From assembly GCF_044324785.1 (NCBI RefSeq), contig NZ_CP172127.1: a stretch of 64,000 bases of DNA; one strand, given 5' to 3'. Both the position numbers and the translations under genes were made by a program. Shown here piece by piece: positions 2,302-63,673 of the stretch. Every line of letters starts with the position of its first letter. The stretch's first letter is position 1. The stretch is from Escherichia coli (GTDB taxonomy: Bacteria > Pseudomonadota > Gammaproteobacteria > Enterobacterales > Enterobacteriaceae). The notes below the pieces were generated by a model. The model was given only the letters and a program-made list of their open reading frames with translations. It was not told where the DNA came from and searched no databases.

Positions 2302-2351
2302 TGGTAGAATTAAATATTGTTGTCTAAATATACATATATGGTTAACTGAAC

Positions 2352-3503
2352 ATGAATGTGGTTGATTTATACTCAGGGGTAGGTGGTTTAAGCTTGGGAG
2401 CATCACGGGCAGGCTTTAACTTGGTTGGTGCCGTTGAGTTGGATAAGCATGCAATATTTTCCCATGCTCTTAATTTCCCAAATTCAACACATTTACATAA
2501 AGATGTTAGCAAACTTTCTGCTCATGATATTCTAACAGCTTGTAATGTTAGTAATATTGATTGTGTCATCGGTGGACCACCTTGTCAGGGATTTAGTACA
2601 ATTGGTAAAGGGATGGCTAATGACGTCAGAAATGAATTGTATATTCATTTTTTTAGGTTGGTGAGCGAGTTATCACCTGTTTGTTTCTTGGCAGAGAATG
2701 TTCCTGGGATAATGAATGAAAAATATGATGCAGTTAGAGAAAAAGCATTCTCATTAGTAAAAGACCGATATGTAATATTGAGCCCAATAAAAGTGAATGC
2801 GTCTAATTATGGAGCTCCTACAACTAGAACTAGGATTTTTTTTATCGGATTCAAAAAGGAATTAGCTAATTGTTTAAAAGAATCTGATTTCTTTCCTGTG
2901 CAAGATATTGAGCAAACCTTAGTTAAAGATGCTTTATACGGTATTCCTCGTGTTATAAGAAAAGAATGGCAGCAAGAGGAACAAGGCTGGCGTGAAGTTA
3001 AGATGGATAGGCAAGGATATTTTTTTGATAGACTTTGGAGTAATGTTCCGAATAATGTTGGTGATCCGGAATCTTTAGAAAAATTAAAAAAAGGGTTGGT
3101 CTCCGGTTTCTTGGGAACAATACATACAGATGAGGTTATTAATAGATATAAAAAACTCTCTTTTGGCGAAACTGATAAAATTTCACGATCTCAGAGGTTA
3201 AATCCAAATGGTTTCTGTCCGACGCTAAGGGCTGGAACTGGCAGCGATAAGGGCAGTTATCAAGCAGTTAGGCCGATCCATCCAACGCAGGCTAGAGTTA
3301 TTACTCCACGTGAGGCTGCTCGATTACAAGGTTTTCCTGATTGGTTTAGGTTTCACCCTACTAAGTGGCATAGTTTCAGGCAAATCGGTAATAGCGTTAG
3401 CCCATTAGTAGCTGAAGCTATGCTATTACCGTTATATAAATTATGTCAGTTTTCTAAAGAAGAACTTTCGAATACCACGGAATTACTTTGTAATACTCAA
3501 TAA
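2352..3503 (+). CDS. DNA (cytosine-5)-methyltransferase (383 aa)
   Basis: Canonical C5-MTase motifs in order: motif I DLYSGVGG, motif IV GGPPCQGFS, motif VI FLAENVPG, motif VIII-like TTRTRIFFIG, motif X IGNSVSP. AT-rich relative to flanking phage genes. Starts 51 bp after the gpA stop. Confidence 0.85.
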   Translation: MNVVDLYSGVGGLSLGASRAGFNLVGAVELDKHAIFSHALNFPNSTHLHKDVSKLSAHDILTACNVSNIDCVIGGPPCQGFSTIGKGMANDVRNELYIHFFRLVSELSPVCFLAENVPGIMNEKYDAVREKAFSLVKDRYVILSPIKVNASNYGAPTTRTRIFFIGFKKELANCLKESDFFPVQDIEQTLVKDALYGIPRVIRKEWQQEEQGWREVKMDRQGYFFDRLWSNVPNNVGDPESLEKLKKGLVSGFLGTIHTDEVINRYKKLSFGETDKISRSQRLNPNGFCPTLRAGTGSDKGSYQAVRPIHPTQARVITPREAARLQGFPDWFRFHPTKWHSFRQIGNSVSPLVAEAMLLPLYKLCQFSKEELSNTTELLCNTQ

Positions 3504-3915
3504 AGTTTTTAAGGTTACTATTAGCCTCGGCTTCATCATCTCCAATGTAAAAGCCGAGGTCGTTGGTAATTTCTTCATGGTCTTTTGTAGGAAGTCGTTC
3601 CTCAATAAAGATTCTCTCACGTAAAGACATCGTGGGAACACTAATGTTTTTGACGGTGCCCCAGTCTCCAGAATAAAAGGGCCAAAAATTAATTCGAGAA
3701 TTTTGAAGGAAGCTATCTAATTGCATATCACTGTTTTCGAGAACAATGGCAGTAAAGGTAAGCATTTGCTGACCATCTTTGTAAATAAAATTACATAAAG
3801 GATGGATCATTATATCTGGTCTACCTGTTAATCCAATACTTATGGCACGTTGAGCTGCTTTTATTAAAAGGTGTGGGTACCTTTTAAAAGTGACATCATC
3901 AACAGTTAGATTCAC
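3454..3915 (-). CDS. Hypothetical protein (153 aa), third gene of GHKL-ATPase operon
   Basis: GTG start overlaps the stop of the upstream 177-aa ORF by 4 nt (GTGA). No recognisable motif. 3' end overlaps the MTase 3' end convergently by 50 bp. Confidence 0.55.
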   Translation of the reverse strand: MNLTVDDVTFKRYPHLLIKAAQRAISIGLTGRPDIMIHPLCNFIYKDGQQMLTFTAIVLENSDMQLDSFLQNSRINFWPFYSGDWGTVKNISVPTMSLRERIFIEERLPTKDHEEITNDLGFYIGDDEAEANSNLKNFIEYYKVIPWYSKVLL

Positions 3916-4445
3916 TGGGCAATAATCTTGAGTAAGTAAAGATTGTATTTTTTTAATCGAAAACGCCTAGGGTCTCTTTCTTGAAAATCTCTTCCTAAAG
4001 TTTCAGGAGTTGCATTTAAAGTTATTTTAAATATATCTTTTGGCTTTAACTTACTTACCAATTGAGCAATGTCATTCATTTGCTCATATATTTGGCTTGG
4101 TATGGCATAGTCAAGCCAAATTAGAGAAGGTGCAGCGAAGTCGCTTTGAGTAATAAATTCACTGCTACTTAAAGGTTCTTCTCCTAAATCAATACATGAT
4201 ATAGGTTTGTTAAATTTTTGTCGTTTATGAACGTTAGCATCTACCTCTAGAGAGATCATGTTATTGATTTTTAAAGCATTATGCAGTTGTTTGAAGTCTT
4301 CTAGAAAAGGGCCACCAAACCCGATATAAACATAATCGGATATGTTTACATAGTTGTTGAGTTTTCTGAGCAACTCAATGAATAGATTTCTTTCGACAGC
4401 TTTGTGTTGTCGAAGATGATAAGGAATACTTCCCCCAGTACTCAT
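3912..4445 (-). CDS. Hypothetical protein (177 aa), second gene of GHKL-ATPase operon
   Basis: ATG overlaps the stop of the 488-aa ORF by 4 nt (ATGA). Weak glycine-rich stretch YVYIGFGGPF could be a nucleotide- or SAM-binding loop, but no confident family assignment. Confidence 0.55.
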   Translation of the reverse strand: MSTGGSIPYHLRQHKAVERNLFIELLRKLNNYVNISDYVYIGFGGPFLEDFKQLHNALKINNMISLEVDANVHKRQKFNKPISCIDLGEEPLSSSEFITQSDFAAPSLIWLDYAIPSQIYEQMNDIAQLVSKLKPKDIFKITLNATPETLGRDFQERDPRRFRLKKYNLYLLKIIAQ

Positions 4446-5908
4446 TTTTTTGCCCTCTCTAAAAAATCTTCAAAGCAATAATTACCAATTTCTGTCGGAG
4501 GAACAGAATCATCATCGAAAATGAAAGTGGCAACAGTTTTTATCTCACTCAATCTTCTACTAAATTTTATTTGCTTTAAAGGGTCTGTTTCTTTAGGTAT
4601 TGGCAATGTTGGTTTGAAACTATTCCCACCAATGGATCTATGCACCCGAGACCATTTATCTTCAGGTACTATGCTATCTAGTTTGTCGTTTGTAAGAGGA
4701 ATTGTTTTAGATGTGGAACTAAACATTTGCTGGCGTTCTGGAGAGTTACTTTTCCATCTGTTAGTAAAATCTGTAAATATTTTCAAGCCTTCACGCATGA
4801 AATCTTTAGTAGCCAAATAGATATCAGAATTACCATCAATGCCTCTCTTGGTAGTAGTAATAGGTAATTTTTCAGCTTCATTAGATGTAAAAATAGCTAC
4901 GCCTGCAATTCCAACAAATTGTGTGTGATATTGTGGAACTCCTGCTTCACCCCATCCGGTAAGACGTGTCTTGTCCGCATGAACAACAACACGATCATTG
5001 CAGATAATAGTCCATCCGGCTTTCTCGGAAGTGTTACGTCCAGTAAGGAATGAATTTTCCTCATCTTCTGTCACAAAATCTCTATAGAATCCAACTGCGA
5101 TCTTTATTGAAACTCCATTAGTTTCACCTCTGTAAAAATAAGGCGTGATACCACCTTTTTTCGCTGACACAAGAGCTTCGGTATCGATAATTAATGATGT
5201 CAGATTTGGCTTGACTTCTATATCATTAATATAGACCTTGAAACCTTTATTAAGAATTAGGCTATAATGGTTTGAAACAGAATTGATTAATTTTTGTTGA
5301 AAATCACGATCAACTTTGAAATGGTTTTTTACATCGTCTCTGAGATCGTTAACTATAATTTTTACGCCCGTTGTTTTTAAATCGACATTACCACGTTCGA
5401 GATCTAGTTTCCAGTTTTTATCATTGGATAACCATTCTGGAGAAATTGTAACTTTAAATTCCTCGTCTTTTGTTTTACTTAATACTTGCGATGAAGTGCC
5501 CAACTTAAAAATAGCTCGCTTCATACCTATCCCATAAACACCAATGGTTGGGATATTATCTATGTCTCTTTCATTTGGTCTTCCCATTCGGAAAGCATAG
5601 CTTGTTGCTAAGCTTCCCGAAATTCCGCCACAATTATCTTCAATTGTAAAACCATCTTCATTAAAATTTATTTTTGAGTAAAAACCGTGGTATTTATTTT
5701 CTTCGTTTATTTCTTCATTCGATGATGAAATGGAACGAAGAGCGCCATCAAGACAGTTGTCTAATAAGTCAAGAATAGCATCTTGGAGTTCGATATCCCT
5801 GGTTAACATTTCTACAAAGAAACGTTTTGCAGGAAAAGCTTCGATGATATCGTTTGCCATAGTTATTTTAGTTCCATCTGTGTGATTACTTATAGATATG
5901 TTTACCAT
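4442..5908 (-). CDS. GHKL-superfamily (MutL/GyrB/MORC-like Bergerat fold) ATPase (488 aa)
   Basis: N-box AILDLLDNCLDGA, G1 box IEDNCGGISG and G2 box IGVYGIGMKRA occur in the expected order and spacing in the N-terminal ~130 residues. C-terminal ~350 residues unassigned. First gene of a 3-gene coupled operon. Confidence 0.7.
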   Translation of the reverse strand: MVNISISNHTDGTKITMANDIIEAFPAKRFFVEMLTRDIELQDAILDLLDNCLDGALRSISSSNEEINEENKYHGFYSKINFNEDGFTIEDNCGGISGSLATSYAFRMGRPNERDIDNIPTIGVYGIGMKRAIFKLGTSSQVLSKTKDEEFKVTISPEWLSNDKNWKLDLERGNVDLKTTGVKIIVNDLRDDVKNHFKVDRDFQQKLINSVSNHYSLILNKGFKVYINDIEVKPNLTSLIIDTEALVSAKKGGITPYFYRGETNGVSIKIAVGFYRDFVTEDEENSFLTGRNTSEKAGWTIICNDRVVVHADKTRLTGWGEAGVPQYHTQFVGIAGVAIFTSNEAEKLPITTTKRGIDGNSDIYLATKDFMREGLKIFTDFTNRWKSNSPERQQMFSSTSKTIPLTNDKLDSIVPEDKWSRVHRSIGGNSFKPTLPIPKETDPLKQIKFSRRLSEIKTVATFIFDDDSVPPTEIGNYCFEDFLERAKK

Positions 5909-6324: not shown

Positions 6325-7359
6325 TCAGCCGTTGTCAGTGTCCAGTGAGTAGTTTTTAAATCGGATGACCTCCTGACCGAGCCAGCCGTTTATCTCGCGG
6401 ATCCTGTCCTGTAACGGGATAAGCTCATTGCGGACAAAGACCTTTGCCACTTTCTCAATATCACCCAGCGACCCGACGTTCTCCGGCTTGCCGCCCATCA
6501 ACTGAAAGGGGATGCGGTGCGCGTCCAGCAGGTCTGCGGCGCTGGCTTTTTTGATATTAAAAAAATCGTCTTTCGTCGCCACTTCACTGAGCGGGATAAT
6601 TTTAATGCCGTCGGCTTTTCCCTGCGGGGCGTAGAGAAACAGATTTTTAAAGTTGTTGCGGCCTTTCGACTTCACCATGTTTTCGCGGAGCATTTCGATA
6701 TCGTTGCGATCCTGCACGGCGTCGGTGACGTACATGATGTATCCGGCATGTGCGCCGTTTTCGTAATACTTGCGGCGGAACAGCGTGGCCGACTCATTCA
6801 GCCAGGCAGAGTTAAGGGCGCTGAGATATTCCGGCAGGCCGTACAGCTCCTGATTGATATCCGGCTCCAGCAGGTGAAATACGGAGCCGGGCGCGAAGGC
6901 TGTCGGTTCGTTGAAGGACGGCACCCACCAGTAAACATCCTCTTCCACCCCACGGCGGGTATATTTTGCCGGTGAGGTTTCCAGTCTGATGACCTTACCG
7001 GTGGTGCTGTAACGCTTTTCCAGAAACGCATTGCCGAACACCAGAAAATCCAGCACAAAGCGGCTGAAATCCTGCTGGGAAAGCCACGGATGCGGGATAA
7101 ATGTCGAGGCCAGAATATTGCGTTTGACGTAAATCGGTGAGCTGTGATGCACGGCAGCACGCAGACTTTTTGCCAGCCCGGTAAAGCTGACCGGCGGCTC
7201 ATACCATCTGCCGTTACTGATGCATTCGACGTAATCCAGAATGTCACGGCGGTCGAGTACCGGCACCGGCTCGCCAAAGGTGAATGCCTCCATTTTCGGG
7301 GCGCTGGCAGTCATTTTTTTTGCCGCAGGTTGCGGTGTTTTCCCTTTTTTCTTGCTCAT
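6325..7359 (-). CDS. Q: Portal protein gpQ (344 aa)
   Basis: Size, position next to cos and terminase, and sequence are typical of the P2 portal protein. Confidence 0.9.
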   Translation of the reverse strand: MSKKKGKTPQPAAKKMTASAPKMEAFTFGEPVPVLDRRDILDYVECISNGRWYEPPVSFTGLAKSLRAAVHHSSPIYVKRNILASTFIPHPWLSQQDFSRFVLDFLVFGNAFLEKRYSTTGKVIRLETSPAKYTRRGVEEDVYWWVPSFNEPTAFAPGSVFHLLEPDINQELYGLPEYLSALNSAWLNESATLFRRKYYENGAHAGYIMYVTDAVQDRNDIEMLRENMVKSKGRNNFKNLFLYAPQGKADGIKIIPLSEVATKDDFFNIKKASAADLLDAHRIPFQLMGGKPENVGSLGDIEKVAKVFVRNELIPLQDRIREINGWLGQEVIRFKNYSLDTDNG

Positions 7360-18764: not shown

Positions 18765-19673
18765 ATGCCGATTATCGACCTGAACCAGCTACCCGCACCG
18801 GATGTGGTCGAGGAGCTGGACTTTGAAAGCATTCTCGCTGAACGCAAGGCGACACTGATTTCCCTTTACCCGGAAGATCAGCAGGAGGCGGTCGCCCGTA
18901 CCCTGACACTGGAATCTGAGCCTCTCGTCAAACTGCTGGAAGAAAATGCTTATCGTGAGCTTATCTGGCGTCAGCGTGTGAATGAGGCCGCACGGGCGGT
19001 GATGCTGGCCTGTGCCGCCGGTAATGACCTTGATGTGATTGGTGCCAATTACAACACCACGCGCCTGACTATCACCCCGGCAGATGATTCGACCATTCCG
19101 CCGACACCGGCAGTGATGGAATCTGACACCGATTATCGGCTGCGTATTCAGCAGGCGTTTGAAGGTTTAAGCGTCGCCGGGTCGGTGGGTGCCTATCAGT
19201 ATCATGGCCGCAGTGCCGACGGGCGTGTCGCGGATATCTCTGTCACCAGTCCGTCTCCGGCCTGCGTCACTATCTCTGTGCTGTCACGTGAAAATAACGG
19301 CGTCGCATCCGAAGACCTGCTGGCTGTGGTGCGTAACGCCCTTAATGGCGAGGACGTCAGGCCGGTGGCCGACCGCGTGACCGTGCAGTCTGCCGCCATC
19401 GTTGAATACCAGATAAACGCCACGCTTTACCTTTACCCTGGTCCCGAAAGCGAACCCATCCGCGCTGCCGCTGTGAAAAAGCTGGAAGCGTATATCACGG
19501 CACAGCACAGGCTGGGGCGCGACATCCGTCTGTCTGCCATTTATGCCGCTTTGCATGTGGAAGGTGTGCAGCGTGTCGAACTGGCTGCACCACTGGCCGA
19601 CATCGTGCTCAACAGTACGCAGGCGTCTTTCTGTACCGAATACCGCGTCGTGACCGGAGGCTCGGATGAGTGA
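18765..19673 (+). CDS. J: Baseplate protein gpJ (302 aa)
   Basis: Position and size. Confidence 0.9.
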   Translation: MPIIDLNQLPAPDVVEELDFESILAERKATLISLYPEDQQEAVARTLTLESEPLVKLLEENAYRELIWRQRVNEAARAVMLACAAGNDLDVIGANYNTTRLTITPADDSTIPPTPAVMESDTDYRLRIQQAFEGLSVAGSVGAYQYHGRSADGRVADISVTSPSPACVTISVLSRENNGVASEDLLAVVRNALNGEDVRPVADRVTVQSAAIVEYQINATLYLYPGPESEPIRAAAVKKLEAYITAQHRLGRDIRLSAIYAALHVEGVQRVELAAPLADIVLNSTQASFCTEYRVVTGGSDE

Positions 19674-20196
19674 TTCGCGACTGCTGCCGACCGGCTCATC
19701 ACCGCTTGAGGTCGCCGCCGCAAAAGCCTGTGCGGAAATTGAAAAAACGCCGGTCAGTATTCGTGAGCTGTGGAACCCGGACACCTGTCCGGCAAATCTG
19801 CTGCCGTGGCTGGCGTGGGCGTTTTCGGTCGACAGGTGGGATGAAAAGTGGCCGGAAGCGACAAAACGCGCCGTTATCCGCGATGCGTATTTCATCCACT
19901 GTCATAAAGGCACAATAGGTGCAATCCGGCGTGTGGTGGAGCCGCTCGGCTATCTCATCAACGTGACGGAGTGGTGGGAAAACAGTGACCCGCCCGGCAC
20001 CTTCCGGCTTGATATTGGTGTACTGGAAAGCGGCATCACAGAGGCAATGTATCAGGAAATGGAACGGCTGATTGCTGATGCCAAACCTGCAAGCCGCCAC
20101 CTTATTGGCCTGAACATTACCCGGGACATTCCCGGCTACCTGTTCGCCGGTGGTGTGGCTTACGACGGCGATGTAATTACGGTTTACCCCGGATAA
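19666..20196 (+). CDS. I: Baseplate/tail fibre attachment protein gpI (176 aa)
   Basis: Position and size. Overlaps the J stop. Confidence 0.9.
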   Translation: MSDSRLLPTGSSPLEVAAAKACAEIEKTPVSIRELWNPDTCPANLLPWLAWAFSVDRWDEKWPEATKRAVIRDAYFIHCHKGTIGAIRRVVEPLGYLINVTEWWENSDPPGTFRLDIGVLESGITEAMYQEMERLIADAKPASRHLIGLNITRDIPGYLFAGGVAYDGDVITVYPG

Positions 20197-23056: not shown

Positions 23057-23381
23057 GTGATATGATCTCTTGTGTTAGTTAACATAGCTATAGTACAGAG
23101 TAAGGCCTAATCTGACAGTCCGCTCTGTGCTAGGAGCGGACATTATCAACATCATGCTATGTTAATGTATAAAGTGAAGATAAATTGATATAATAAGGCC
23201 ACCATGAATATTTCAGAACCTTGTCAAAAGGTTTGCACATACTCTAGTCTTGCAATGTGTAGTTGATAGTTCCACTGAGGAGGTTCTTCGACATTCTTTA
23301 TAAAAATGTACATTTTCATCAATAATAAGAGGTAAAAGGGCTTTAATGGTTTTTTGTGGATGTTATTTCTACTCATAAATT

Positions 23382-23410
23382 TTGAGATAAGTATTGAGTT
23401 GAGATAAAAT
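23382..23410 (+). promoter_or_regulatory. Putative sigma70 promoter for the 175-aa cargo gene
   Basis: -35 TTGAGA at 23382..23387, 17-bp spacer, -10 TAAAAT at 23405..23410. AAGGA Shine-Dalgarno about 8 nt before the ATG at 23446. Confidence 0.4.
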
Positions 23411-23445
23411 TAAACTCGTTAAATTCACCTTTAAAAGGATAAAGC

Positions 23446-23973
23446 ATGGACTGGAAAGATCTTGCATCAACCGCTGTGTATACAGGTATGACTGATGAAA
23501 ATGAAAGCATATGGGAACGTGTTGATGGGGTTGACGTTGCCTTCATAGGTGCCTTTCTTACTGCGCACTTGAGCCTTGAAAAGTATATTACTGATTATCT
23601 TGGATTAAGATATCCTTCGTTAGCTTGGGGTGATGCAAAACTCACATTTTCACAAAAAATAGCTTTAATACAACATGAGCCTGCAACCCCCCCTTATGAT
23701 GAAATATATTTAAGAATAAAAGACTTTAACAGCATAAGAAATAAAATCAGTCATCAATTGAATTATCAGATTACGGATAAAGAAAAAAGTAAGTTTGTGG
23801 ACTTCTACATGAAGATTACTAAAGCCAGTAAAACTAAACCAAATATTGATATTGATAACATGGCAGATTTGTTGGATTTTTTCGTATCGATGACAAAATC
23901 CTATTTTGCTAGTGCTATTTCTTGTTATCACTATAATAAAAAGGTTGCAGGTAAAAGTAATAAAATTGATTAA
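23446..23973 (+). CDS. Hypothetical cargo protein (175 aa) with Rx4H HEPN-like motif
   Basis: Very AT-rich gene in the G-to-FI gap, where P2 carries Z/fun. Motif IRNKISH (R-x4-H) in the middle of the protein. Good Shine-Dalgarno. Confidence 0.55.
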   Translation: MDWKDLASTAVYTGMTDENESIWERVDGVDVAFIGAFLTAHLSLEKYITDYLGLRYPSLAWGDAKLTFSQKIALIQHEPATPPYDEIYLRIKDFNSIRNKISHQLNYQITDKEKSKFVDFYMKITKASKTKPNIDIDNMADLLDFFVSMTKSYFASAISCYHYNKKVAGKSNKID

Positions 23974-24271
23974 TAAAACTGGACTTAGGGATAATTAATA
24001 TATAGACGTTCTATCATTTTTAGAGTGTGCGGCAGCTCCATACATTCATGCGGATGTCAGCACCTCGCTCAAAGCAGACAGTCAGATTTGATAGCGTTTG
24101 GACTATGTAAATAGTCAGTTGGAAAATGAGTGAGTACAAATCAGGACAGGCGGGCGAATTGCCCGCCTTTTCTTTATCTGTTGTTTCATCCACTGACCAG
24201 CCAGGTCAAATAGCGTCTCATGCTCTGCCCAACAGAAAATAGTTGCACCCATTAACCACGGAGTTAAACGG

Positions 24272-25462
24272 ATGAGTGACTATCATCACGGCGTGCAGGT
24301 GCTGGAGATTAACGACGGCACCCGCGTCATTTCCACCGTATCCACGGCCATTGTCGGCATGGTCTGCACGGCCAGCGATGCGGATGCGGAAACCTTCCCC
24401 CTCAATAAACCGGTGCTGATTACCAATGTGCAGAGCGCAATTGCAAAGGCTGGTAAAAAAGGCACGCTGGCGGCATCGTTGCAGGCCATCGCCGACCAGT
24501 CAAAACCGGTCACCGTTGTCGTGCGTGTGGAAGACGGCACCGGCGACGACGAGGAAACGAAACTCGCGCAGACCGTTTCCAATATCATCGGCACCACCGA
24601 CGAAAACGGTCAGTACACCGGACTGAAAGCCCTGCTGGCGGCGGAGTCGGTAACCGGTGTTAAACCGCGTATTCTCGGCGTGCCGGGACTGGACACCAAA
24701 GAGGTGGCTGTTGCACTGGCATCAGTCTGTCAGAAGCTGCGCGCTTTCGGGTATATCAGCGCATGGGGCTGTAAAACTATTTCCGAGGTGAAAGCCTACC
24801 GCCAGAATTTCAGCCAGCGTGAGTTGATGGTCATCTGGCCGGATTTCCTCGCATGGGATACGGTCACCAGTACCACCGCCACCGCGTATGCCACCGCCCG
24901 TGCGCTGGGTCTGCGCGCTAAAATCGACCAGGAGCAGGGCTGGCATAAAACACTGTCCAACGTTGGGGTGAACGGTGTTACCGGCATCAGCGCCTCTGTA
25001 TTCTGGGATTTGCAGGAGTCCGGCACCGATGCTGACCTGCTTAATGAGTCAGGCGTCACTACGCTGATTCGCCGCGACGGTTTCCGCTTCTGGGGTAACC
25101 GTACCTGCTCTGATGATCCGCTGTTCCTCTTTGAAAACTACACCCGCACCGCGCAGGTGCTGGCCGACACGATGGCTGAGGCGCACATGTGGGCGGTGGA
25201 CAAGCCCATCACCGCAACGCTGATTCGCGACATCGTTGACGGCATCAATGCCAAATTCCGTGAGCTGAAAACAAACGGCTATATCGTGGATGCGACCTGC
25301 TGGTTCAGCGAAGAATCCAACGATGCGGAAACCCTCAAGGCCGGAAAACTGTATATCGACTACGACTATACACCGGTGCCTCCTCTCGAAAACCTGACCC
25401 TGCGCCAGCGTATTACCGATAAATACCTGGCAAATCTGGTCACCTCGGTTAACAGCAATTAA
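24272..25462 (+). CDS. FI: Tail sheath protein gpFI (396 aa)
   Basis: Size and position. Confidence 0.9.
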   Translation: MSDYHHGVQVLEINDGTRVISTVSTAIVGMVCTASDADAETFPLNKPVLITNVQSAIAKAGKKGTLAASLQAIADQSKPVTVVVRVEDGTGDDEETKLAQTVSNIIGTTDENGQYTGLKALLAAESVTGVKPRILGVPGLDTKEVAVALASVCQKLRAFGYISAWGCKTISEVKAYRQNFSQRELMVIWPDFLAWDTVTSTTATAYATARALGLRAKIDQEQGWHKTLSNVGVNGVTGISASVFWDLQESGTDADLLNESGVTTLIRRDGFRFWGNRTCSDDPLFLFENYTRTAQVLADTMAEAHMWAVDKPITATLIRDIVDGINAKFRELKTNGYIVDATCWFSEESNDAETLKAGKLYIDYDYTPVPPLENLTLRQRITDKYLANLVTSVNSN

Positions 25463-25474
25463 GGAGCCTGACCG

Positions 25475-25993
25475 ATGGCAATGCCGCGCAAACTCAAGTT
25501 AATGAACGTCTTTCTGAACGGCTACAGCTATCAGGGCGTTGCAAAGTCCGTCACGCTGCCAAAACTGACCCGTAAGCTCGAAAACTATCGCGGTGCGGGG
25601 ATGAACGGCAGCGCACCGGTAGACCTCGGCCTTGATGACGATGCGCTGTCAATGGAGTGGTCGCTCGGTGGTTTCCCGGATTCGGTTATCTGGGAGCTTT
25701 ACGCAGCAACCGGTGTGGATGCCGTGCCGATTCGTTTTGCAGGCTCTTACCAGCGCGACGATACCGGCGAAACGGTGGCCGTCGAGGTAGTCATGCGTGG
25801 ACGTCAGAAAGAAATCGACACCGGAGAGGGTAAACAGGGAGAAGACACCGAGTCGAAAATCTCCGTGGTCTGCACCTATTTCCGGCTGACGATGGACGGT
25901 AAGGAGCTGGTCGAAATCGACACCATCAACATGATTGAGAAGGTGAACGGCGTCGACCGGCTGGAGCAACACCGCCGCAATATCGGCCTGTGA
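25475..25993 (+). CDS. FII: Tail tube protein gpFII (172 aa)
   Basis: Size and position. Confidence 0.9.
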   Translation: MAMPRKLKLMNVFLNGYSYQGVAKSVTLPKLTRKLENYRGAGMNGSAPVDLGLDDDALSMEWSLGGFPDSVIWELYAATGVDAVPIRFAGSYQRDDTGETVAVEVVMRGRQKEIDTGEGKQGEDTESKISVVCTYFRLTMDGKELVEIDTINMIEKVNGVDRLEQHRRNIGL

Positions 25994-26049
25994 TTTTCAT
26001 CCGGTCAGCCAGGCTGACCGGTTAACCCTGATTCAGAAGTGAGAAAACC

Positions 26050-26325
26050 ATGAACAAAGAAAATGTGATTACCCTGGACAATCCGGTCAAGCGTGGTGAG
26101 CAGGTTATCGAACAGGTCACGCTGATGAAACCCAATGCCGGGACGCTGCGCGGTGTCAGTCTGGCTGCGGTCGCGAACTCCGAAGTCGATGCACTGATTA
26201 AAGTGCTGCCGCGCATGACGGCACCGATGCTGACCGAACAGGAGGTCGCCGCGCTGGAACTGCCTGACCTTGTGGCGCTGGCCGGTAAGGTGGTCGGTTT
26301 TTTGTCGCCGAACTCGGTGCAGTGA
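26050..26325 (+). CDS. E: Tail assembly chaperone gpE (91 aa)
   Basis: Position between FII and T. Ends ...KVVGFLSPNSVQ. Confidence 0.85.
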   Translation: MNKENVITLDNPVKRGEQVIEQVTLMKPNAGTLRGVSLAAVANSEVDALIKVLPRMTAPMLTEQEVAALELPDLVALAGKVVGFLSPNSVQ

Positions 26326-26477
26326 CGTTTCCGAAAAATCTCTCGGTCGATGACCTGATGGCGGATGTGGCAGTGATATTTCACTGGCCGCCATCAGAAC
26401 TGTATCCCATGAGCCTGACCGAACTCATCACATGGCGCGAAAAGGCGCTCCGGCGAAGCGGAAACACGAATGAGTAA
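26050..26477 (+). CDS. E': gpE+E' product of programmed -1 frameshift (about 142 aa)
   Basis: Slippery T-run GGTTTTTTG at about 26296..26304 near the end of E. The -1 frame stays open to TAA at 26475..26477, overlapping the T start. Matches the known P2 E/E' arrangement. Confidence 0.6.
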
Positions 26478-28917
26478 CAATGTAAAATTACAGGTATTGC
26501 TCAGGGCTGTTGACCAGGCATCCCGCCCGTTTAAATCCATCCGCACAGCGAGCAAATCGCTGTCGGGGGATATCCGGGAAACACAAAAATCACTGCGCGA
26601 GCTGAACGGTCACGCATCCCGTATTGAGGGATTCCGCAAGACCAGTGCACAGCTCGCCGTGACTGGTCAGGAACTGAAAAAAGCCAGACAGGAAGCCGCA
26701 GCTCTGGCTGTCCAGTTTAAAAATACTGAACGACCGACAAATGCACAGGCAAAGGCAATGGAAGCCGCGCGTAAAAATGCGTCTGAGTTACAGGTGAAAT
26801 ATAACAGCCTGAGATTGTCGGTACAGCGCCAGCGTCAGGAATTGAGTCAGGCGGGTATTAATACCCGTAATCTGGCGCATGATGAACGAGGACTGAAAAA
26901 CCGTATCAGTGAAACCACCGCACAGCTTAACCGGCAGCGTGACGCGCTGGCGCGTGTCAGTGCACAACAGGCAAAACTTAACGCAGTAAAACAGCGTTAT
27001 CAGGCCGGAAAGGAACTGGCCGGAAATATGGCCTCGGTGGGCGCTGCCGGTGTGGGGATTGCGGCGGCGGGAACGATGGCCGGAGTTAAGCTGCTGATGC
27101 CCGGTTATGAGTTTGCGCAGAAAAACTCAGAATTGCAGGCCGTGCTCGGTGTGGCAAAAGACTCCACCGAAATGGCTGCACTACGCAAGCAGGCGCGTCA
27201 GCTCGGCGACAATACCGCAGCCTCGGCAGATGATGCAGCTGGTGCGCAGATTATTATTGCGAAAGCCGGTGGGGATGTTGATGCCATTCAGGCGGCAACG
27301 CCGGTCACGCTGAATATGGCGCTGGCGAACCGTCGCACAATGGAAGAAAACGCCGCCCTGCTGATGGGGATGAAATCCGCCTTTCAGCTTTCAAACGATA
27401 AGGTCGCTCATATCGGGGATGTTCTCTCCATGACGATGAACAAAACCGCCGCTGATTTTGACGGCATGAGCGATGCGCTGACCTATACCGCACCAGTGGC
27501 AAAAAATGCCGGTGTCAGCATTGAAGAAACCGCCGCAATGGTCGGGGCGCTGCATGATGCAAAAATCACAGGCTCAATGGCGGGGACGGGAAGCCGTGCC
27601 GTGTTAAGCCGCCTGCAGGCACCGACGGGAAAAGCATGGGATGCACTCAAAGAGCTTGGTGTGAAAACCTCAGACAGCAAGGGAAACACCCGACCAGTAT
27701 TTACCATTCTGAAAGAAATGCAGGCCAGTTTTGAGAAAAACCGGCTCGGTACTGCCCAGCAGGCTGAATACATGAAAACCATTTTCGGGGAGGAGGCCAG
27801 TTCAGCCGCCGCCGTGCTGATGACTGCCGCCTCAACCGGAAAGCTGGACAAACTGACCGCTGCGTTTAAAGCCTCAGACGGAAAGACCGCAGAGCTGGTA
27901 AATATCATGCAGGACAACCTCGGCGGTGAATTTAAGGAGTTTCAGTCCGCTTATGAGGCGGTGGGGACTGACCTGTTTGACCAGCAGGAAGGCGCACTGC
28001 GTAAGCTCACGCAGACGGCCACAAAGTATGTGTTAAAACTCGACGGCTGGATCCAGAAAAACAAATCACTGGCGTCAACCATCGGCCTCATTGTCGGTGG
28101 CGCGCTGGCGCTTATTGGCATCATCGGTGCCATTGGTCTGGTAGCCTGGCCGGTTATCACCGGCATCAATGCCATCATCGCGGCAGCAGGCGCAATGGGG
28201 GCAATCTTCACGACGGTTGGCAGTGCTGTTATGACCGCCATCGGGGCGATTAGCTGGCCGGTTGTGGCCGTGGTGGCCGCAATTGTCGCCGGGGCGTTGC
28301 TTATCCGTAAATACTGGGAGCCTGTCAGCGCATTCTTTGGCGGTGTGGTTGAAGGGCTGAAAGTGGCATTTGCGCCGGTGGGGGAACTGTTCACGCCACT
28401 TAAGCCGGTGTTTGACTGGCTGGGTGAAAAGTTACAGGCCGCGTGGCAGTGGTTTAAAAACCTGATTGCCCCGGTCAAAGCCACTCAGGACACCCTGAAC
28501 AGTTGCCGTGACACGGGGGTCATGTTCGGGCAGGCACTGGCTGACGCGCTGATGCTGCCGCTTAATGTGTTCAACAAACTGCGCAGCGGTATTGACTGGG
28601 TACTGGAAAAACTCGGCGTCATCAACAAAGAGTCTGACGCACTTGACCAGACTGCCGCCAGAACTCATGCCGCCACGTATGGCACAGGTGATTATATTCC
28701 GGCGACCGGCTCTTATGCGGGGTATCAGGCTTACCAGCCGGTCACGGCACCGGCTGGCCGCTCTTATGTGGACCAGAGTAAAAACGAATATCACATCAAT
28801 CTGACGGGCGGTACTGCGCCGGGGACACAGCTCGACCGCCATTTACAGGATGCGCTCGAAAAATACGAGCGGGATAAACGTGCGCGCGCCCGTGCCAGCA
28901 TGATGCATGACGGTTAA
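26470..28917 (+). CDS. T: Tail tape measure protein gpT (815 aa)
   Basis: Size, coiled-coil N-terminus, hydrophobic glycine/alanine-rich central segment. Confidence 0.9.
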   Translation: MSNNVKLQVLLRAVDQASRPFKSIRTASKSLSGDIRETQKSLRELNGHASRIEGFRKTSAQLAVTGQELKKARQEAAALAVQFKNTERPTNAQAKAMEAARKNASELQVKYNSLRLSVQRQRQELSQAGINTRNLAHDERGLKNRISETTAQLNRQRDALARVSAQQAKLNAVKQRYQAGKELAGNMASVGAAGVGIAAAGTMAGVKLLMPGYEFAQKNSELQAVLGVAKDSTEMAALRKQARQLGDNTAASADDAAGAQIIIAKAGGDVDAIQAATPVTLNMALANRRTMEENAALLMGMKSAFQLSNDKVAHIGDVLSMTMNKTAADFDGMSDALTYTAPVAKNAGVSIEETAAMVGALHDAKITGSMAGTGSRAVLSRLQAPTGKAWDALKELGVKTSDSKGNTRPVFTILKEMQASFEKNRLGTAQQAEYMKTIFGEEASSAAAVLMTAASTGKLDKLTAAFKASDGKTAELVNIMQDNLGGEFKEFQSAYEAVGTDLFDQQEGALRKLTQTATKYVLKLDGWIQKNKSLASTIGLIVGGALALIGIIGAIGLVAWPVITGINAIIAAAGAMGAIFTTVGSAVMTAIGAISWPVVAVVAAIVAGALLIRKYWEPVSAFFGGVVEGLKVAFAPVGELFTPLKPVFDWLGEKLQAAWQWFKNLIAPVKATQDTLNSCRDTGVMFGQALADALMLPLNVFNKLRSGIDWVLEKLGVINKESDALDQTAARTHAATYGTGDYIPATGSYAGYQAYQPVTAPAGRSYVDQSKNEYHINLTGGTAPGTQLDRHLQDALEKYERDKRARARASMMHDG

Positions 28918-28931
28918 GGAGGTGACGAAAA

Positions 28932-29411
28932 ATGATGCTCGCGTTAGGTATGTTTGTTTTTATGCGCCAGACGCTGCCACACCAGACCATGCAGCGTGAA
29001 TCAGATTATCGCTGGCCGTCAAATTCCCGTATCGGTAAACGGGACGCCTACCAGTTTCTCGGTGTGGGTGAGGAAAACATCACGCTTGCCGGTGTGCTTT
29101 ATCCAGAACTGACCGGCGGCAAGCTGACGATGACCACGCTCAGGCTGATGGCAGAGGAAGGCCGGGCGTGGCCGTTGCTGGATGGCACCGGCATGATTTA
29201 CGGCATGTATGTCATCAGCAGGGTGAGTGAAACAGGGAGTATTTTCTTTGCAGACGGCACACCCCGGAAAATTGATTTTACGTTGTCGCTCACCCGCGTT
29301 GATGAATCACTGGCCGCGCTTTATGGCGATATCGGTAAACAGGCGGAATCGCTCATCGGTAAGGCTGGCAGTATGGCGACTAAATTCACGGGTATGACGG
29401 GGGCGGGATAA
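28932..29411 (+). CDS. U: Tail protein gpU (159 aa)
   Basis: Position and size. Confidence 0.9.
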   Translation: MMLALGMFVFMRQTLPHQTMQRESDYRWPSNSRIGKRDAYQFLGVGEENITLAGVLYPELTGGKLTMTTLRLMAEEGRAWPLLDGTGMIYGMYVISRVSETGSIFFADGTPRKIDFTLSLTRVDESLAALYGDIGKQAESLIGKAGSMATKFTGMTGAG

Positions 29412-30574
29412 TGCTGGACGCGCTGACATTTGATGCAGGCAGTACGCTGACGCCGGATTACATGCTGATGCTCGACAGCAGGGATATTACCGGCAATATC
29501 AGCGACCGTCTGATGAGCATGACCCTGACGGATAACCGGGGCTTTGAGGCTGACCAGCTTGATATTGAACTGAACGATGCCGACGGGCAGGTCGGGCTGC
29601 CGGTTCGTGGCGCTGTCCTGACGGTGTATATCGGCTGGAAAGGTTTTGCCCTGGTATGCAAAGGGAAATTTACCGTTGATGAGGTTGAACACCGGGGCGC
29701 ACCGGATGTGGTCACCATCCGCGCCCGGAGTGCAGATTTCCGCGGGACGCTCAATTCCCGCCGTGAAGGCTCCTGGCATGACACCACGCTCGGTGCGATT
29801 GTTGAGGCGATAGCCTCCCGTAACAGACTGGAAGCCAGTGTCGCTCCGTCACTGGCCGGAATTAAAATCCCGCACATCGACCAGTCGCAGGAGTCTGATG
29901 CGAAATTCCTGACCCGTCTTGCAGAACGCAACGGCGGTGAGGTGTCGGTAAAAATGGGAAAACTGCTGTTTCTCAAAGCGGGGCAGGGGGTGACTGCCAG
30001 CGGTAAAAAAATCCCGCAGATTACCATCACCCGCAGCGACGGTGACCGTCATCATTTTGCGATTGCTGACCGTGGCGCCTATACCGGCGTAACGGCAAAG
30101 TGGTTACACACCAAAGACCCGAAGCCACAAAAGCAGAAGGTAAAACTGAAACGCAAAAAGAAAGAGAAACACCTGCGCGCACTGGAGCACCCGAAAGCGA
30201 AACCAGTCACGCAGAAGAAAGCGCCAAAAGTACCGGAAGCACGCGAAGGTGAATACATGGCTGGTGAGGCTGACAACGTTTTTGCCCTGACCACGGTATA
30301 TGCCACGAAAGCGCAGGCCATGCGCGCCGCTCAGGCGAAGTGGGATAAGCTGCAACGGGGCGTTGCGGAGTTCTCCATCAGTCTGGCTACTGGTCGGGCA
30401 GATATTTACACGGAAACGCCGGTCAAAGTGTCAGGCTTTAAGCGCGTCATAGACGAGCAGGACTGGACAATCACTAAGGTGACACATTTTCTGAATAATA
30501 GCGGCTTCACGACGTCCTTAGAGCTTGAGGTCAGGCTTTCTGATGTGGAGTACGAAACAGAAGATGATGAGTGA
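29411..30574 (+). CDS. D: Tail protein gpD (387 aa)
   Basis: Position and size. Start overlaps the U stop. Confidence 0.9.
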   Translation: MLDALTFDAGSTLTPDYMLMLDSRDITGNISDRLMSMTLTDNRGFEADQLDIELNDADGQVGLPVRGAVLTVYIGWKGFALVCKGKFTVDEVEHRGAPDVVTIRARSADFRGTLNSRREGSWHDTTLGAIVEAIASRNRLEASVAPSLAGIKIPHIDQSQESDAKFLTRLAERNGGEVSVKMGKLLFLKAGQGVTASGKKIPQITITRSDGDRHHFAIADRGAYTGVTAKWLHTKDPKPQKQKVKLKRKKKEKHLRALEHPKAKPVTQKKAPKVPEAREGEYMAGEADNVFALTTVYATKAQAMRAAQAKWDKLQRGVAEFSISLATGRADIYTETPVKVSGFKRVIDEQDWTITKVTHFLNNSGFTTSLELEVRLSDVEYETEDDE

Positions 30575-30975: not shown

Positions 30976-31002
30976 AAAAAATAAGCCCGTGTAAGGGAGA
31001 TT
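30976..31002. other. attR: Prophage attR core (P2 27-bp att core AAAAAATAAGCCCGTGTAAGGGAGATT)
   Basis: Exact 27-mer at the junction between ogr and the host gene yegQ. Coincides with the 3' end of cyaR. The P2 core sequence is recalled from memory. Confidence 0.7.
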
Positions 31003-31062
31003 ACACAGGCTAAGGAGGTGGTTCCTGGTACAGCTAGCATTTTATGGGTTATGTTTTTCAGC
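30976..31062 (-). ncRNA. cyaR: CyaR (RyeE) Hfq-dependent small RNA, 87 nt
   Basis: Minus strand reads GCTGAAAAACATAACCCATAAAATGCTAGCTGTACCAGGAACCACCTCCTTAGCCTGTGTAATCTCCCTTACACGGGCTTATTTTTT: a CCUCCUU seed loop and a terminal hairpin with U-run. Lies between yegQ and the prophage end, as in K-12. Confidence 0.85.
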
Positions 31063-31146
31063 GAAACGGATGATAACCTTAATAAATGCAGCTGTATGTG
31101 ATCGGTTTCTAAGAATTTTCCATCCGGGAAAAATAATCGAAATTAA

Positions 31147-32508
31147 TCACTTACCGTGGGGGTTACGCGTGGTTTCCCCGGAGAAATTACGCATCAGCAG
31201 CGCGTAATTTAGCTCAAGATCCTGCGGCACCGGGATCCACACAGTATAACCATCGCCCGGTGCGACCGGCATTGCTTCGCCTTTGGCGTTTTCCATGTGC
31301 TCAAGGGTAAAGTTAATGTTCCCTTGCGGCGTCATCAGCTCAAGGCTGTCGCCAACGGAGAATTTATTTTTCACCGCTACCGCCGCGAGGTCGCCCTTGC
31401 GCTCACCGGTAAACTCACCAACAAACTGCTGGCGGTCAGAAACTGAATAACCGTATTCGTAGTTCTGATAATCGTCGTGAGTATGACGACGCAGGAAACC
31501 TTCGGTATAGCCACGATGCGCCAGACCTTCCAGAGTTTCCAGCAGGCTGGTATCGAACGGTTTGCCCGCAGCGGCGTCATCGATAGCTTTACGGTAAACC
31601 TGTGCGGTGCGTGCGCAATAGTAGAAAGATTTAGTACGGCCTTCGATTTTCAGCGAATGCACGCCCATTTTGGTCAGGCGTTCAACGTGGGCGATAGCGC
31701 GCAGATCTTTCGAGTTCATGATGTAAGTGCCGTGCTCATCTTCAAACGCGGTCATATACTCGCCCGGACGCTGGGCTTCTTCGATCATAAACACTTTGTC
31801 GGTTGGCGCGCCGATACCCAGCGTCGGCTCAACATTTTGCACCGGAATCGGCTCGTACTTGTGCACGATGTTGCCAACGTCATCTTCTTTCCCTTCCTGG
31901 ACGTTGTACTCCCAGCGGCAGGCGTTGGTGCAGGTGCCCTGGTTCGGGTCGCGCTTGTTGATATAGCCAGAGAGCAGGCAGCGACCGGAGTAGGCCATGC
32001 ACAGCGCGCCGTGAACGAAGATTTCGATCTCCATATCTGGCACCTGATTGCGGATCTCTTCAATCTCTTCCAGCGACAGCTCGCGAGAGAGGATCACGCG
32101 GGTCAGGCCCATTTGCTGCCAGAATTTCACCGTCGCCCAGTTCACGGCGTTAGCCTGTACCGAGAGATGGATCGGCATTTCAGGGAAGTGCTCACGCACC
32201 AGCATAATCAGCCCAGGATCGGACATTATCAGCGCATCCGGCCCCATTTCCACCACCGGTTTCAGGTCACGGATAAAGGTTTTCAGCTTGGCGTTGTGCG
32301 GTGCAATGTTGACCACGACATAAAACTTTTTCCCCAGCGCATGGGCTTCATTAATGCCGAGCTGAAGATTTTCGTGGTTGAATTCGTTGTTGCGCACACG
32401 CAGGGAGTAACGCGGCTGGCCCGCATAAACAGCATCTGCGCCATAAGCGAAAGCGTAACGCATATTTTTCAGCGTTCCCGCCGGGGAAAGGAGTTCCGGT
32501 TTAAACAT
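31147..32508 (-). CDS. yegQ: Peptidase U32-family protein YegQ (RlhA, 23S rRNA hydroxycytidine synthase), 453 aa
   Basis: Full-length translation is recognisable as E. coli YegQ. Confidence 0.9.
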   Translation of the reverse strand: MFKPELLSPAGTLKNMRYAFAYGADAVYAGQPRYSLRVRNNEFNHENLQLGINEAHALGKKFYVVVNIAPHNAKLKTFIRDLKPVVEMGPDALIMSDPGLIMLVREHFPEMPIHLSVQANAVNWATVKFWQQMGLTRVILSRELSLEEIEEIRNQVPDMEIEIFVHGALCMAYSGRCLLSGYINKRDPNQGTCTNACRWEYNVQEGKEDDVGNIVHKYEPIPVQNVEPTLGIGAPTDKVFMIEEAQRPGEYMTAFEDEHGTYIMNSKDLRAIAHVERLTKMGVHSLKIEGRTKSFYYCARTAQVYRKAIDDAAAGKPFDTSLLETLEGLAHRGYTEGFLRRHTHDDYQNYEYGYSVSDRQQFVGEFTGERKGDLAAVAVKNKFSVGDSLELMTPQGNINFTLEHMENAKGEAMPVAPGDGYTVWIPVPQDLELNYALLMRNFSGETTRNPHGK

Positions 32509-46587: not shown

Positions 46588-46735
46588 CGCTGAAACGGGA
46601 AAGCCCCTCCCGAGGAAGGGGCCATAAATAAGGAAAGGGTCATGATGAAGCTACTCATCATCGTGGTGCTCTTAGTGATTAGCTACCCAGCATACTAAGA
46701 CTACCAGGGCGGGGGAAACCCCGCTCTACCCTCAC
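46588..46735 (-). ncRNA. sibB: Sib antisense sRNA, antitoxin to the first ibs (boundaries approximate)
   Basis: In the Ibs/Sib family the antitoxin RNA is encoded antisense and spans the whole toxin ORF. Minus-strand hairpin GGCCCCTTCC-TCG-GGAGGGGC at about 46596..46619 is a plausible 3' terminator. Ends not determined. Confidence 0.4.
46642..46698 (+). CDS. ibsB: Ibs-family type I toxin peptide (18 aa, MMKLLIIVVLLVISYPAY)
   Basis: Short hydrophobic ORF with AAGGAAAGGG Shine-Dalgarno. Copy adjacent to mdtA. Symbol assigned by synteny and similarity to K-12 IbsB as recalled. Confidence 0.7.
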   Translation: MMKLLIIVVLLVISYPAY

Positions 46736-46914
46736 TCCTGAAAGTATGCCTTCACGATAAGATTGTCAATCTGCAGGCTTTGCAGTCTGCGATCCTGCCA
46801 GCAAATATTCTTTGCGAGACGTTACGCAATAATCACATGTGAAACTATTTTATCCGCAAGTCAGCGATAGACTGCATTCAGGGCGAAAGGAGGTAAGCCG
46901 ATGATTTCAGCGGG

Positions 46915-47062
46915 ACGCTGAAACGGGAAAGCCCCTCCCGAGGAAGGGGCCTTAAATAAGGAAAGGGTCATGATGAAGTGGATCATCATCGTGGTGCTCT
47001 TAGTCATAAGCTTCCCGGCTTACTAAGACTACCAGGGCGGGGGAACCCCCGCTCTACCCTCA
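46915..47062 (-). ncRNA. Sib antisense sRNA for the middle ibs copy (boundaries approximate)
   Basis: Same architecture as the first unit, shifted by one repeat period. Confidence 0.4.
46969..47025 (+). CDS. Ibs-family type I toxin peptide (18 aa, MMKWIIIVVLLVISFPAY), middle copy
   Basis: Second repeat unit. Same architecture as the other two copies. Confidence 0.7.
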
Positions 47063-47244
47063 CTCCTGAAAGTATGCCTTCACGATAAGATTGTCAATCT
47101 GCAGGCTTTGCAGTCTGCGATCCTGCCAGCAAATATTCTTTGCGAGTCGTTACGCAATAATCACAGAGGAAACTATTTTGTTCACGCGTTAGCGATAGAC
47201 TGCATTCAGGGCGAAAGGAGGTAAGCCGACGATTTCAGCGGGAC

Positions 47245-47392
47245 GCTGAAACGGGAAACCCTCTCCCGGAGAAGAGGGCTTTTAATAAGGAAAGGGTTAT
47301 GATGAAGCACGTCATCATACTGGTGATACTCTTAGTGATTAGCTTCCAGGCTTACTAAGAACACCAGGGGGAGGGGGAAACCTCTCCCTAAC
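47245..47392 (-). ncRNA. sibA: Sib antisense sRNA for the third ibs copy (boundaries approximate)
   Basis: Same architecture as the first unit, shifted by two repeat periods. Confidence 0.4.
47299..47358 (+). CDS. ibsA: Ibs-family type I toxin peptide (19 aa, MMKHVIILVILLVISFQAY)
   Basis: Third repeat unit adjacent to yegL. IbsA-like. Confidence 0.7.
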   Translation: MMKHVIILVILLVISFQAY

Positions 47393-47578
47393 CCTCACTC
47401 CTGAAATTATGTCACTCCGCCCTTAGTGTCAATCGACGGCTCTCCGTTCTTGCGAGGCGAATAGCAAAATTTTCTGCGCCGCCGGGCCTAATTCTGAAAG
47501 TTTCTTCGTTTGCTCTTATTTCATTGTTGCGGTCGGTATGATACCGGGCCTCAATAATTCTCTAAGAAAGGATTTCTT

Positions 47579-63193: not shown

Positions 63194-63661
63194 AGTAAGT
63201 ACAAAACCTATTCGTTGTATGACAAATGTCACAATTCGATCATGGATAAATCGGGGCAAAAATGCAATGTTGCAGCACTATTTATCTCATATTATTTGAG
63301 GGTAATAACCTCACATTATCCCTGAATTAAAAGTGGTAATAATAAAACATTATTTAAGAAATATCGCATGTGGAGACACAGTATTAAATATTGTCAACCT
63401 AAAGAAACTCCTAAAAAACATATTGAATGACACTTAATATAATTCTTAAAAATAGCCAATTGCCGAATTGTTACCTTGCCTGCTATTCCGTTAGCTGTAA
63501 CACTTCCTCCTGCATTATTGGAGAGCCAATATTCAATTACCATAATGTCACCTTATATTCGGAAGTTAATTTCCGCAATAACCCTTTCTCATCAACGATT
63601 GTATGCAGAGAGGGTTTGAAAAATTGAGCTAAATCAGTGTATTGGTAGCTAAAAAGCCAGG

Positions 63662-63673
63662 GGCGGTAGCGTG
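63662..63673 (+). promoter_or_regulatory. ops element (GGCGGTAGCGTG) within a JUMPstart sequence upstream of wza
   Basis: Exact ops 12-mer inside CAGTGTATTGGTAGCTAAAAAGCCAGGGGCGGTAGCGTG (63635..63673). Expected RfaH-dependent antitermination site of the colanic acid operon leader. Confidence 0.7.

Follow-up and report, generated by a model that had tools for sequence, protein, structure and literature searches.

In a stretch of 64,000 nt of Escherichia coli DNA (the window) a prophage begins with the replication gene A, right at the start of the window, and reaches as far as ogr (about 30.87 kb). Its genes for sheath, tube, E, E', tape measure, U, D and ogr have the same order and belong to the same families as those of phage P2. 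Within an FI-FII-E-T-U-D operon, E and E' are flanked by FII (tail tube) and T (tape measure), as judged from the order of the open reading frames and from Pfam matches. The elements of this region are:

24272..25462: sheath gene FI (Pfam, P2 late tail operon)
25475..25993, plus strand: tail tube gene FII, the upstream neighbour of E (ORF of 172 aa; Pfam Phage_tube PF04985, 203.6 bits)
26050..26325, plus strand: gene E, encoding the zero-frame product, a tail assembly protein of 91 aa (ORF; Phage_TAC_7; phrog_103; likeness to P2 gpE)
26298..26304, plus strand: slippery heptamer T_TTT_TTG in the X_XXY_YYZ register of E (codon register; same site in P2; relatives)
26304..26477, plus strand: E' segment, 57 sense codons and a stop in the -1 frame (translation; Phage_P2_GpE; identity to P2)
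join(26050..26304,26304..26477), plus strand: full E+E' coding sequence, 142 aa (translation across the predicted -1 shift)
26322..26477, plus strand: stand-alone E' ORF with a GTG start, 51 aa (ORF finders and PGAP; judged to be an annotation artefact)
26470..28917, plus strand: gene T for the tail tape measure protein (ORF of 815 aa; Pfam PhageMin_Tail, 154.8 bits)
28932..29411: gene U (GpU, Pfam)
29411..30574: gene D (GPD, Pfam)

An earlier note, made from the sequence alone, had read 26296-26477 as a frameshift site, naming a T6 slippery run near the end of E and a -1 frame open through to the start of T. Both statements are accurate. The E codons GGT, TTT and TTG begin at 26296, 26299 and 26302, and the T6 run at 26298-26303 forms together with the G at 26304 the heptamer T_TTT_TTG in register. 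Between the end of the heptamer and the stop codon TGA of E (26323-26325) there are 18 nt. In the -1 frame a TAA at 26286-26288 is followed by an open frame from 26289 until the TAA at 26475-26477; this frame shares 37 nt with E and holds 57 sense codons counted from 26304. The start codon ATG of T is at 26470, that is, the open frame runs 8 nt into T. The span given in the note begins with the GGT codon and ends with the stop codon of E'. Translation of the joined frames predicts the fusion junction ...KVVGFL|VAELGAV..., and judged from the sequence the E' segment would be readable solely via a -1 shift.

The predicted fusion consists of two recognizable parts. In Pfam, residues 7-85 match Phage_TAC_7 (PF10109; 47 bits, cut-off 25), a family described there as 'tail assembly chaperone proteins, E, or 41 or 14', and residues 104-139 match Phage_P2_GpE (PF06528; 76.3-78.7 bits, cut-off 23). 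The latter match lies in the -1 frame, has an E-value of about 1e-22 and covers profile positions 1-36 of 37. In PHROGs, E is assigned to phrog_103 (E=3.8e-43); this and the further matches phrog_1756 and phrog_6416 are all described as 'tail protein' and cover both parts of the fusion. No model in NCBIfam matches the fusion, and among the solved structures in the PDB it has no sequence relative.

An alignment with P2 E/E', suggested in the earlier note as a check, was made against positions 19430..19857 of NC_001895 over 428 nt. There are nine substitutions, every one of them within the first 195 nt, and the last 233 nt, with the slip site and the whole of E', equal P2 exactly. The identity thus begins 54 nt before the heptamer and lasts through the E' stop. 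At the protein level, E differs from P2 gpE by one amino acid and the fusion differs from the deposited P2 E+E' protein (NP_046780.1; UniProt O64312, 'Tail assembly protein E'') by S29N only. Heptamer, register, the 37-nt overlap, products of 91 and 142 aa and the 8-nt overlap with T are all the same; the differences are the nine substitutions early in E, with S29N as the one change in the protein.

The P2 record NC_001895 annotates E+E' as a coding sequence in two pieces with the remark 'shares amino terminus with gpE; -1 frameshift; essential tail protein', and a misc_feature marks the frameshift site at 19685, which is the base just after the G of the heptamer. If base 19685 is taken as the slip point and read again, the result is ...GFLFAELG..., a string absent from the protein collection. 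Re-reading the heptamer G instead leads to ...GFLVAELG..., and this is the junction carried by the deposited P2 protein, according to an exact-sequence look-up. P2 uses a single start for both E (91 aa) and E+E' (142 aa), the longer product arising by a -1 shift at TTTTTTG (PMC3091744); in the published work E' has no ribosome binding site of its own and is produced as an extension of E. For P2, identical at the site, E' is accordingly recorded as an essential -1 extension of gpE (P2 record; PMC3091744).

Positions 25990-26500 of the window are 100% identical to phage pro483 and to a prophage of E. coli SMS-3-5 and 98-99% identical to many Peduovirus genomes. A match to this interval is present in about 29% of the complete E. 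coli genomes (1582/5426). For P2, the slip frequency is said to be about 10%, in work by Christie et al. from 2002 (J Bacteriol 184:6522), which reportedly also contains complementation data.

One has to ask if the bare pattern is more than chance. The window contains 22 copies of TTTTTTG (18.9 expected), and from 22% of random positions in the window at least 57 sense codons are open. Of all 161 ORFs of at least 80 aa in the window, seven have an in-register heptamer near the ORF end and can be prolonged by 40 codons or more in the -1 frame. Because the heptamer and open -1 frames are individually common in the window, their combination alone is not significant and was dropped as evidence. 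The reality of the site rests on homology, conservation and the pattern of selection, and these confirm it.

A tblastn search with the fusion matched 418 phage records, 401 of them over at least 80% of the query, and among the matches listed each near-full-length one came in two pieces. These relatives come from Burkholderia, Klebsiella, Ralstonia, Pseudomonas, Vibrio, Mannheimia and other hosts. We selected 12 diverse phages at the level of genera (about 37-75% identity) and scanned them for in-register heptamers only; under this restriction such a heptamer was found at the homologous place in all 12. It has the form T_TTT_TT(G/T/C) in ten of them, the other two being Mannheimia PHL101 with G_GGA_AAG and P88 with A_AAT_TTT. 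In 12 out of 12 the -1 frame runs on into GpE-like sequence. Phage 186 (gene H orf51/orf52) and other pairs of the Peduoviridae share with the window an in-register T_TTT_TTG shortly before the E homologue ends, the GpE domain in the -1 frame and the position between tube and tape measure genes. They differ in protein identity (about 37-75%) and in the length of E (94-124 aa), the overlap with T is missing in some, and two have G_GGA_AAG or A_AAT_TTT.

Closer relatives were sampled from IMG/VR. Among 80 of them there were 77 full-length copies, representing 59 haplotypes, and heptamer and both frames are intact in 77 out of 77. According to the earlier note, stops in the -1 frame of other sequenced copies would speak against its reading; there are none in these full-length contigs. 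The variants in this sample are informative about the frame in use. Upstream of the site (n=40), 35 are synonymous in frame 0, two in frame -1 and three in frame +1. Downstream of the E stop (n=21), the respective numbers are four, 12 and three. These counts show that the frame under selection switches from 0 to -1 at the slip site.

Taken together, positions 26050-26477 very probably hold the E/E' tail gene pair of a P2-type (Peduovirus) E. coli prophage, with a predicted programmed -1 ribosomal frameshift of the P2 type from which E and E+E' would be made. This confidence applies to the two statements jointly, and no feature of the sequence speaks against them.

Three other explanations of the arrangement have to be weighed. 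The T-run and the open alternative frame might stand side by side by chance and have no function, as the heptamer count at expectation and the frequency of open -1 frames in the window would allow. This is already refuted by the Pfam GpE match falling in the -1 frame, by purifying selection in that same frame, by the maintenance of the arrangement across the Peduoviridae and by the identity of the sequence with the annotated P2 site, so that its probability is close to nil. More specific is the idea that E' is an independent gene, starting from the GTG at 26322 and coupled to the termination of E via GTGA without any recoding. The GTG indeed overlaps the stop codon of E, an arrangement common in coupling, and PGAP and many phage records show a separate coding sequence of 51 aa. 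However, there is no SD-like motif within 18 nt upstream of this GTG, and among 13 other phages examined the GTG is present in P2 alone; in the remaining 12, the part ahead of the conserved core is free of start-type codons, or the only one lies within the core. In 186, Vibrio MAR, Mannheimia PHL101 and Acidovorax, no start-type codon appears in the E' frame until within or beyond the core motif. Over the 13 phages and the window, neither a conserved start codon nor a conserved SD-like motif for E' was found. A slippery heptamer in all 12 relatives, T6-type in ten, would moreover be superfluous if E' were initiated independently, and for P2 itself the published view is that E' lacks a ribosome binding site and is made by extending E. 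Judged by these sequence features, initiation at GTG 26322 was rejected as extremely improbable, since there is no SD and the GTG is not conserved.

It is also conceivable that the shift arises in transcription, with RNA polymerase stuttering on the T6 run and inserting an additional U, so that a fraction of the transcripts would encode E+E' with the junction ...GFFVAELG.... The slip site is a homopolymer run, an extra T yields an in-frame ORF of 142 aa, which is annotated in this way in three draft E. coli assemblies with T7, and data from reporter fusions alone cannot tell transcriptional from ribosomal slippage. Yet a run of six bases is short for efficient polymerase slippage; the known cases in bacteria use about 8-9 A or T. 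Furthermore, the X_XXY_YYZ register with G, T or C at position 7 is kept in ten out of ten T6-type relatives, although in-register heptamers alone were searched for, and the heptamers of Mannheimia PHL101 (G_GGA_AAG) and P88 (A_AAT_TTT) are not homopolymeric and workable on the ribosome only. We therefore regard polymerase stutter as very unlikely, and a programmed -1 shift of the ribosome as the reading to be followed.

The three draft assemblies (L100-L102) deserve a comment of their own. Their slip run is T7 where the window has T6; with it, E and E' are fused with the junction GFFV, and the resulting ORF of 142 aa bears the name 'GpE family phage tail protein'. In L101 and L102 the tube gene is called with 125-130 aa, not 172, and in L101 the tape measure has 288 aa, not 815. 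Because these neighbouring genes are shortened in L101 and L102, the T7 of the three assemblies is probably due to homopolymer sequencing errors.

The surroundings of the heptamer were inspected for stimulatory elements like those of E. coli dnaX. RNAalifold found no conserved downstream RNA structure among the 12 relatives (-0.01 kcal/mol, three pairs, no covariation). Folding of the first 36 nt after the heptamer was no better than that of shuffled sequence in the window (z = -0.01), within a range of -2.3 to +1.1 over the 13 sequences folded. The 96-nt fold downstream of the heptamer has z = -3.6, because of a hairpin at 26355-26397 (plus strand), a perfect 10-bp inverted repeat CTGATGGCGG...CCGCCATCAG inside E'. 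Its arms are visible also in the aligned sequence of 186; except for a core of 3 bp it does not belong to the consensus structure of the 12 aligned phages. As this hairpin starts 50 nt downstream of the slip site and overlaps the codons of the conserved LMAD...WPPSE motifs, it is an unlikely frameshift stimulator. On the upstream side a near-consensus SD-like TAAGGTGGT at 26286-26294 ends 3 nt before the heptamer, and comparable motifs (GGTG/GAGG) are present in some relatives, not in all. As a stimulator of the dnaX type TAAGGTGGT was rejected, its spacing being wrong and its conservation patchy; in dnaX the SD spacing that stimulates -1 shifts is about 10 nt.

The site shares with dnaX (A_AAA_AAG) the predicted tandem -1 slippage on an X_XXY_YYZ heptamer. 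However, dnaX has an upstream SD and a downstream hairpin, whereas the E/E' site has no conserved 3' hairpin and a mis-spaced SD-like motif: neither a stem-loop or pseudoknot 5-9 nt past the heptamer nor an SD-like element about 10 nt before it was found. Also, the shifted product is the longer one in E/E' and the shorter one in dnaX. The lack of stimulatory elements agrees with the P2 literature, in which E+E' is published as having no such structures (PMC3091744). Local features of the P2/186 group, with TAAGGTGGT and the CTGATGGCGG...CCGCCATCAG hairpin as the candidates, may tune the slip frequency or couple the termination of E' to the initiation of T, but we consider this unlikely. We know of no such slip-tuning stimulator described for P2.

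From these data the following course of events can be proposed. Most ribosomes would finish E (91 aa) and terminate at 26323-26325. A minority would slip back by one base on T_TTT_TTG (26298-26304), probably with tRNA-Phe (on UUU) and tRNA-Leu (on UUG) re-pairing with UUU UUU, and would then decode GUC GCC GAA... until the -1 frame closes with TAA (26475-26477). The product would be E+E' of 142 aa with the junction ...VVGFL|VAELG.... The route should be reflected in the junction peptide: VVGFLVAELGAVTFPK is expected from tandem ribosomal slippage after decoding of Leu, and VVGFFVAELGAVTFPK from slippage in the P-site only or from a U7 transcript. Both products would have the N-terminal tail-assembly-chaperone domain in common, and the GpE domain would be present on the fusion only. 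The slip frequency in this prophage would fix the ratio of E to E+E'.

With regard to function, the best comparison is lambda gpG/gpGT. There, too, an overlapping pair of ORFs lies between the major tail or tube gene and the tape measure gene, and slippage by -1 shortly before the first ORF ends sets the ratio of short to long product (PMC5009743; PMC3091744). At the locus studied here the overlapping ORFs are likewise found just upstream of T, with the slip site near the end of the first. According to the lambda model, the tape measure protein is bound by the two products, which also bring in the tube protein and do not end up in virions (PMC5009743). The systems differ in that lambda uses G_GGA_AAG and the P2 tail is contractile, and the literature reports no sequence similarity. 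By analogy, E and E+E' would coat the tape measure T, recruit the tube protein and stay out of the virion. The reading of the earlier note is supported, as site, frame, product and the order FII-E-E'-T all correspond to the P2 frameshift. Its word 'chaperone' stands as an analogy: we infer this role from lambda gpG/gpGT and the name of the Pfam family, and the P2 record itself speaks merely of an 'essential tail protein' without the term chaperone. A chaperone frameshift conserved in tailed phages was reportedly described by Levin in 1993 and by Xu, Hendrix and Duda in 2004.

Several further observations concern the prophage and its surroundings. The positions at which P2 carries the cargo genes tin/old and Z/fun are occupied by unrelated genes. 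The elements in question, together with those outside the prophage, are:

1..2301: replication gene A, left flank of the cargo at the tin/old position
2352..3503, plus strand: C-5 cytosine DNA methylase, sole PADLOC match in this cargo
3454..4445, minus strand: split PF20553 'putative O-methyltransferase', ORFs of 177 aa and 153 aa
4442..5908, minus strand: HATPase_c_3 ATPase of 488 aa, in the same cargo
6325..7359: gene Q, right flank of the cargo at the tin/old position
23446..23973, plus strand: ORF of 175 aa at the P2 Z/fun position, between the tail-fibre assembly gene G and FI
30979..31064, minus strand: CyaR/RyeE sRNA gene (100.7 bits), directly past ogr at the right end of the prophage
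46627..47432, minus strand: three tandem Sib antitoxin RNAs (137-150 bits each)
63635..63673, plus strand: JUMPstart element (57 bits)

The cargo at the tin/old position thus covers 2352..5908, between A and Q, and may be an uncharacterised modification or defence module. Its O-methyltransferase gene is split at an A-run at 3948-3954, which is A7 here and A8 in E. coli EC05. This is the only difference from EC05 over 1021 nt; EC77, the other of the two closest genomes, is likewise 99.9% identical over 1022 nt. Up to this indel the numbering of the window (1..4460 compared) equals that of the EC05 chromosome record NZ_CM169495.1, and the first base of the window is probably also the first of an almost identical assembly. 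Both strains annotate a single O-methyltransferase coding sequence (330 aa in EC05). The A7/A8 difference is a homopolymer indel, by mutation or assembly error, and not a programmed shift. The stretch 3440-4460 with this gene has matches in two complete E. coli genomes out of 5426 and none among the phage records. The ORF at 23446..23973 lies in an AT-rich island (GC 0.29-0.36, compared to about 0.55 in the flanks) and has no match in Pfam, PADLOC or NCBIfam; in PHROGs it belongs to phrog_5483, function unknown. Of the phage records, vB_EcoM-569R9 alone covers most of the surrounding stretch 23100-24260.

At the right end of the prophage, the CyaR gene is adjoined by an ORF of 453 aa (31147..32508, minus strand), which we take to be similar to YegQ, a U32-family peptidase. 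The CyaR/YegQ region is a known attachment region of the P2 family, with the ogrK remnant in K-12. Further away, the Sib RNAs imply three copies of the ibs/sib type I toxin-antitoxin system, and the JUMPstart element presumably heads a polysaccharide gene cluster past the window end.

The frameshift itself is already known, and nothing is added here to the knowledge of P2 since 2002. What the locus illustrates is a point of annotation, as the recoded gene is broken up by gene callers and PGAP, which list E and a fictitious stand-alone E'. RefSeq/PGAP gives a separate 'GpE family phage tail protein' of 51 aa at this place, and the remark in the earlier note that E' needs manual annotation is borne out. 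In RefSeq, E' of E. coli SMS-3-5 has the same name and a GTG start, and most phage records are alike. We judge this stand-alone ORF of 51 aa to be an annotation artefact. E+E' should be entered as join(26050..26304,26304..26477), carrying a ribosomal_slippage qualifier and placed beside the coding sequence of E. For the prophage, the finding means that its tail-assembly module has been kept intact.
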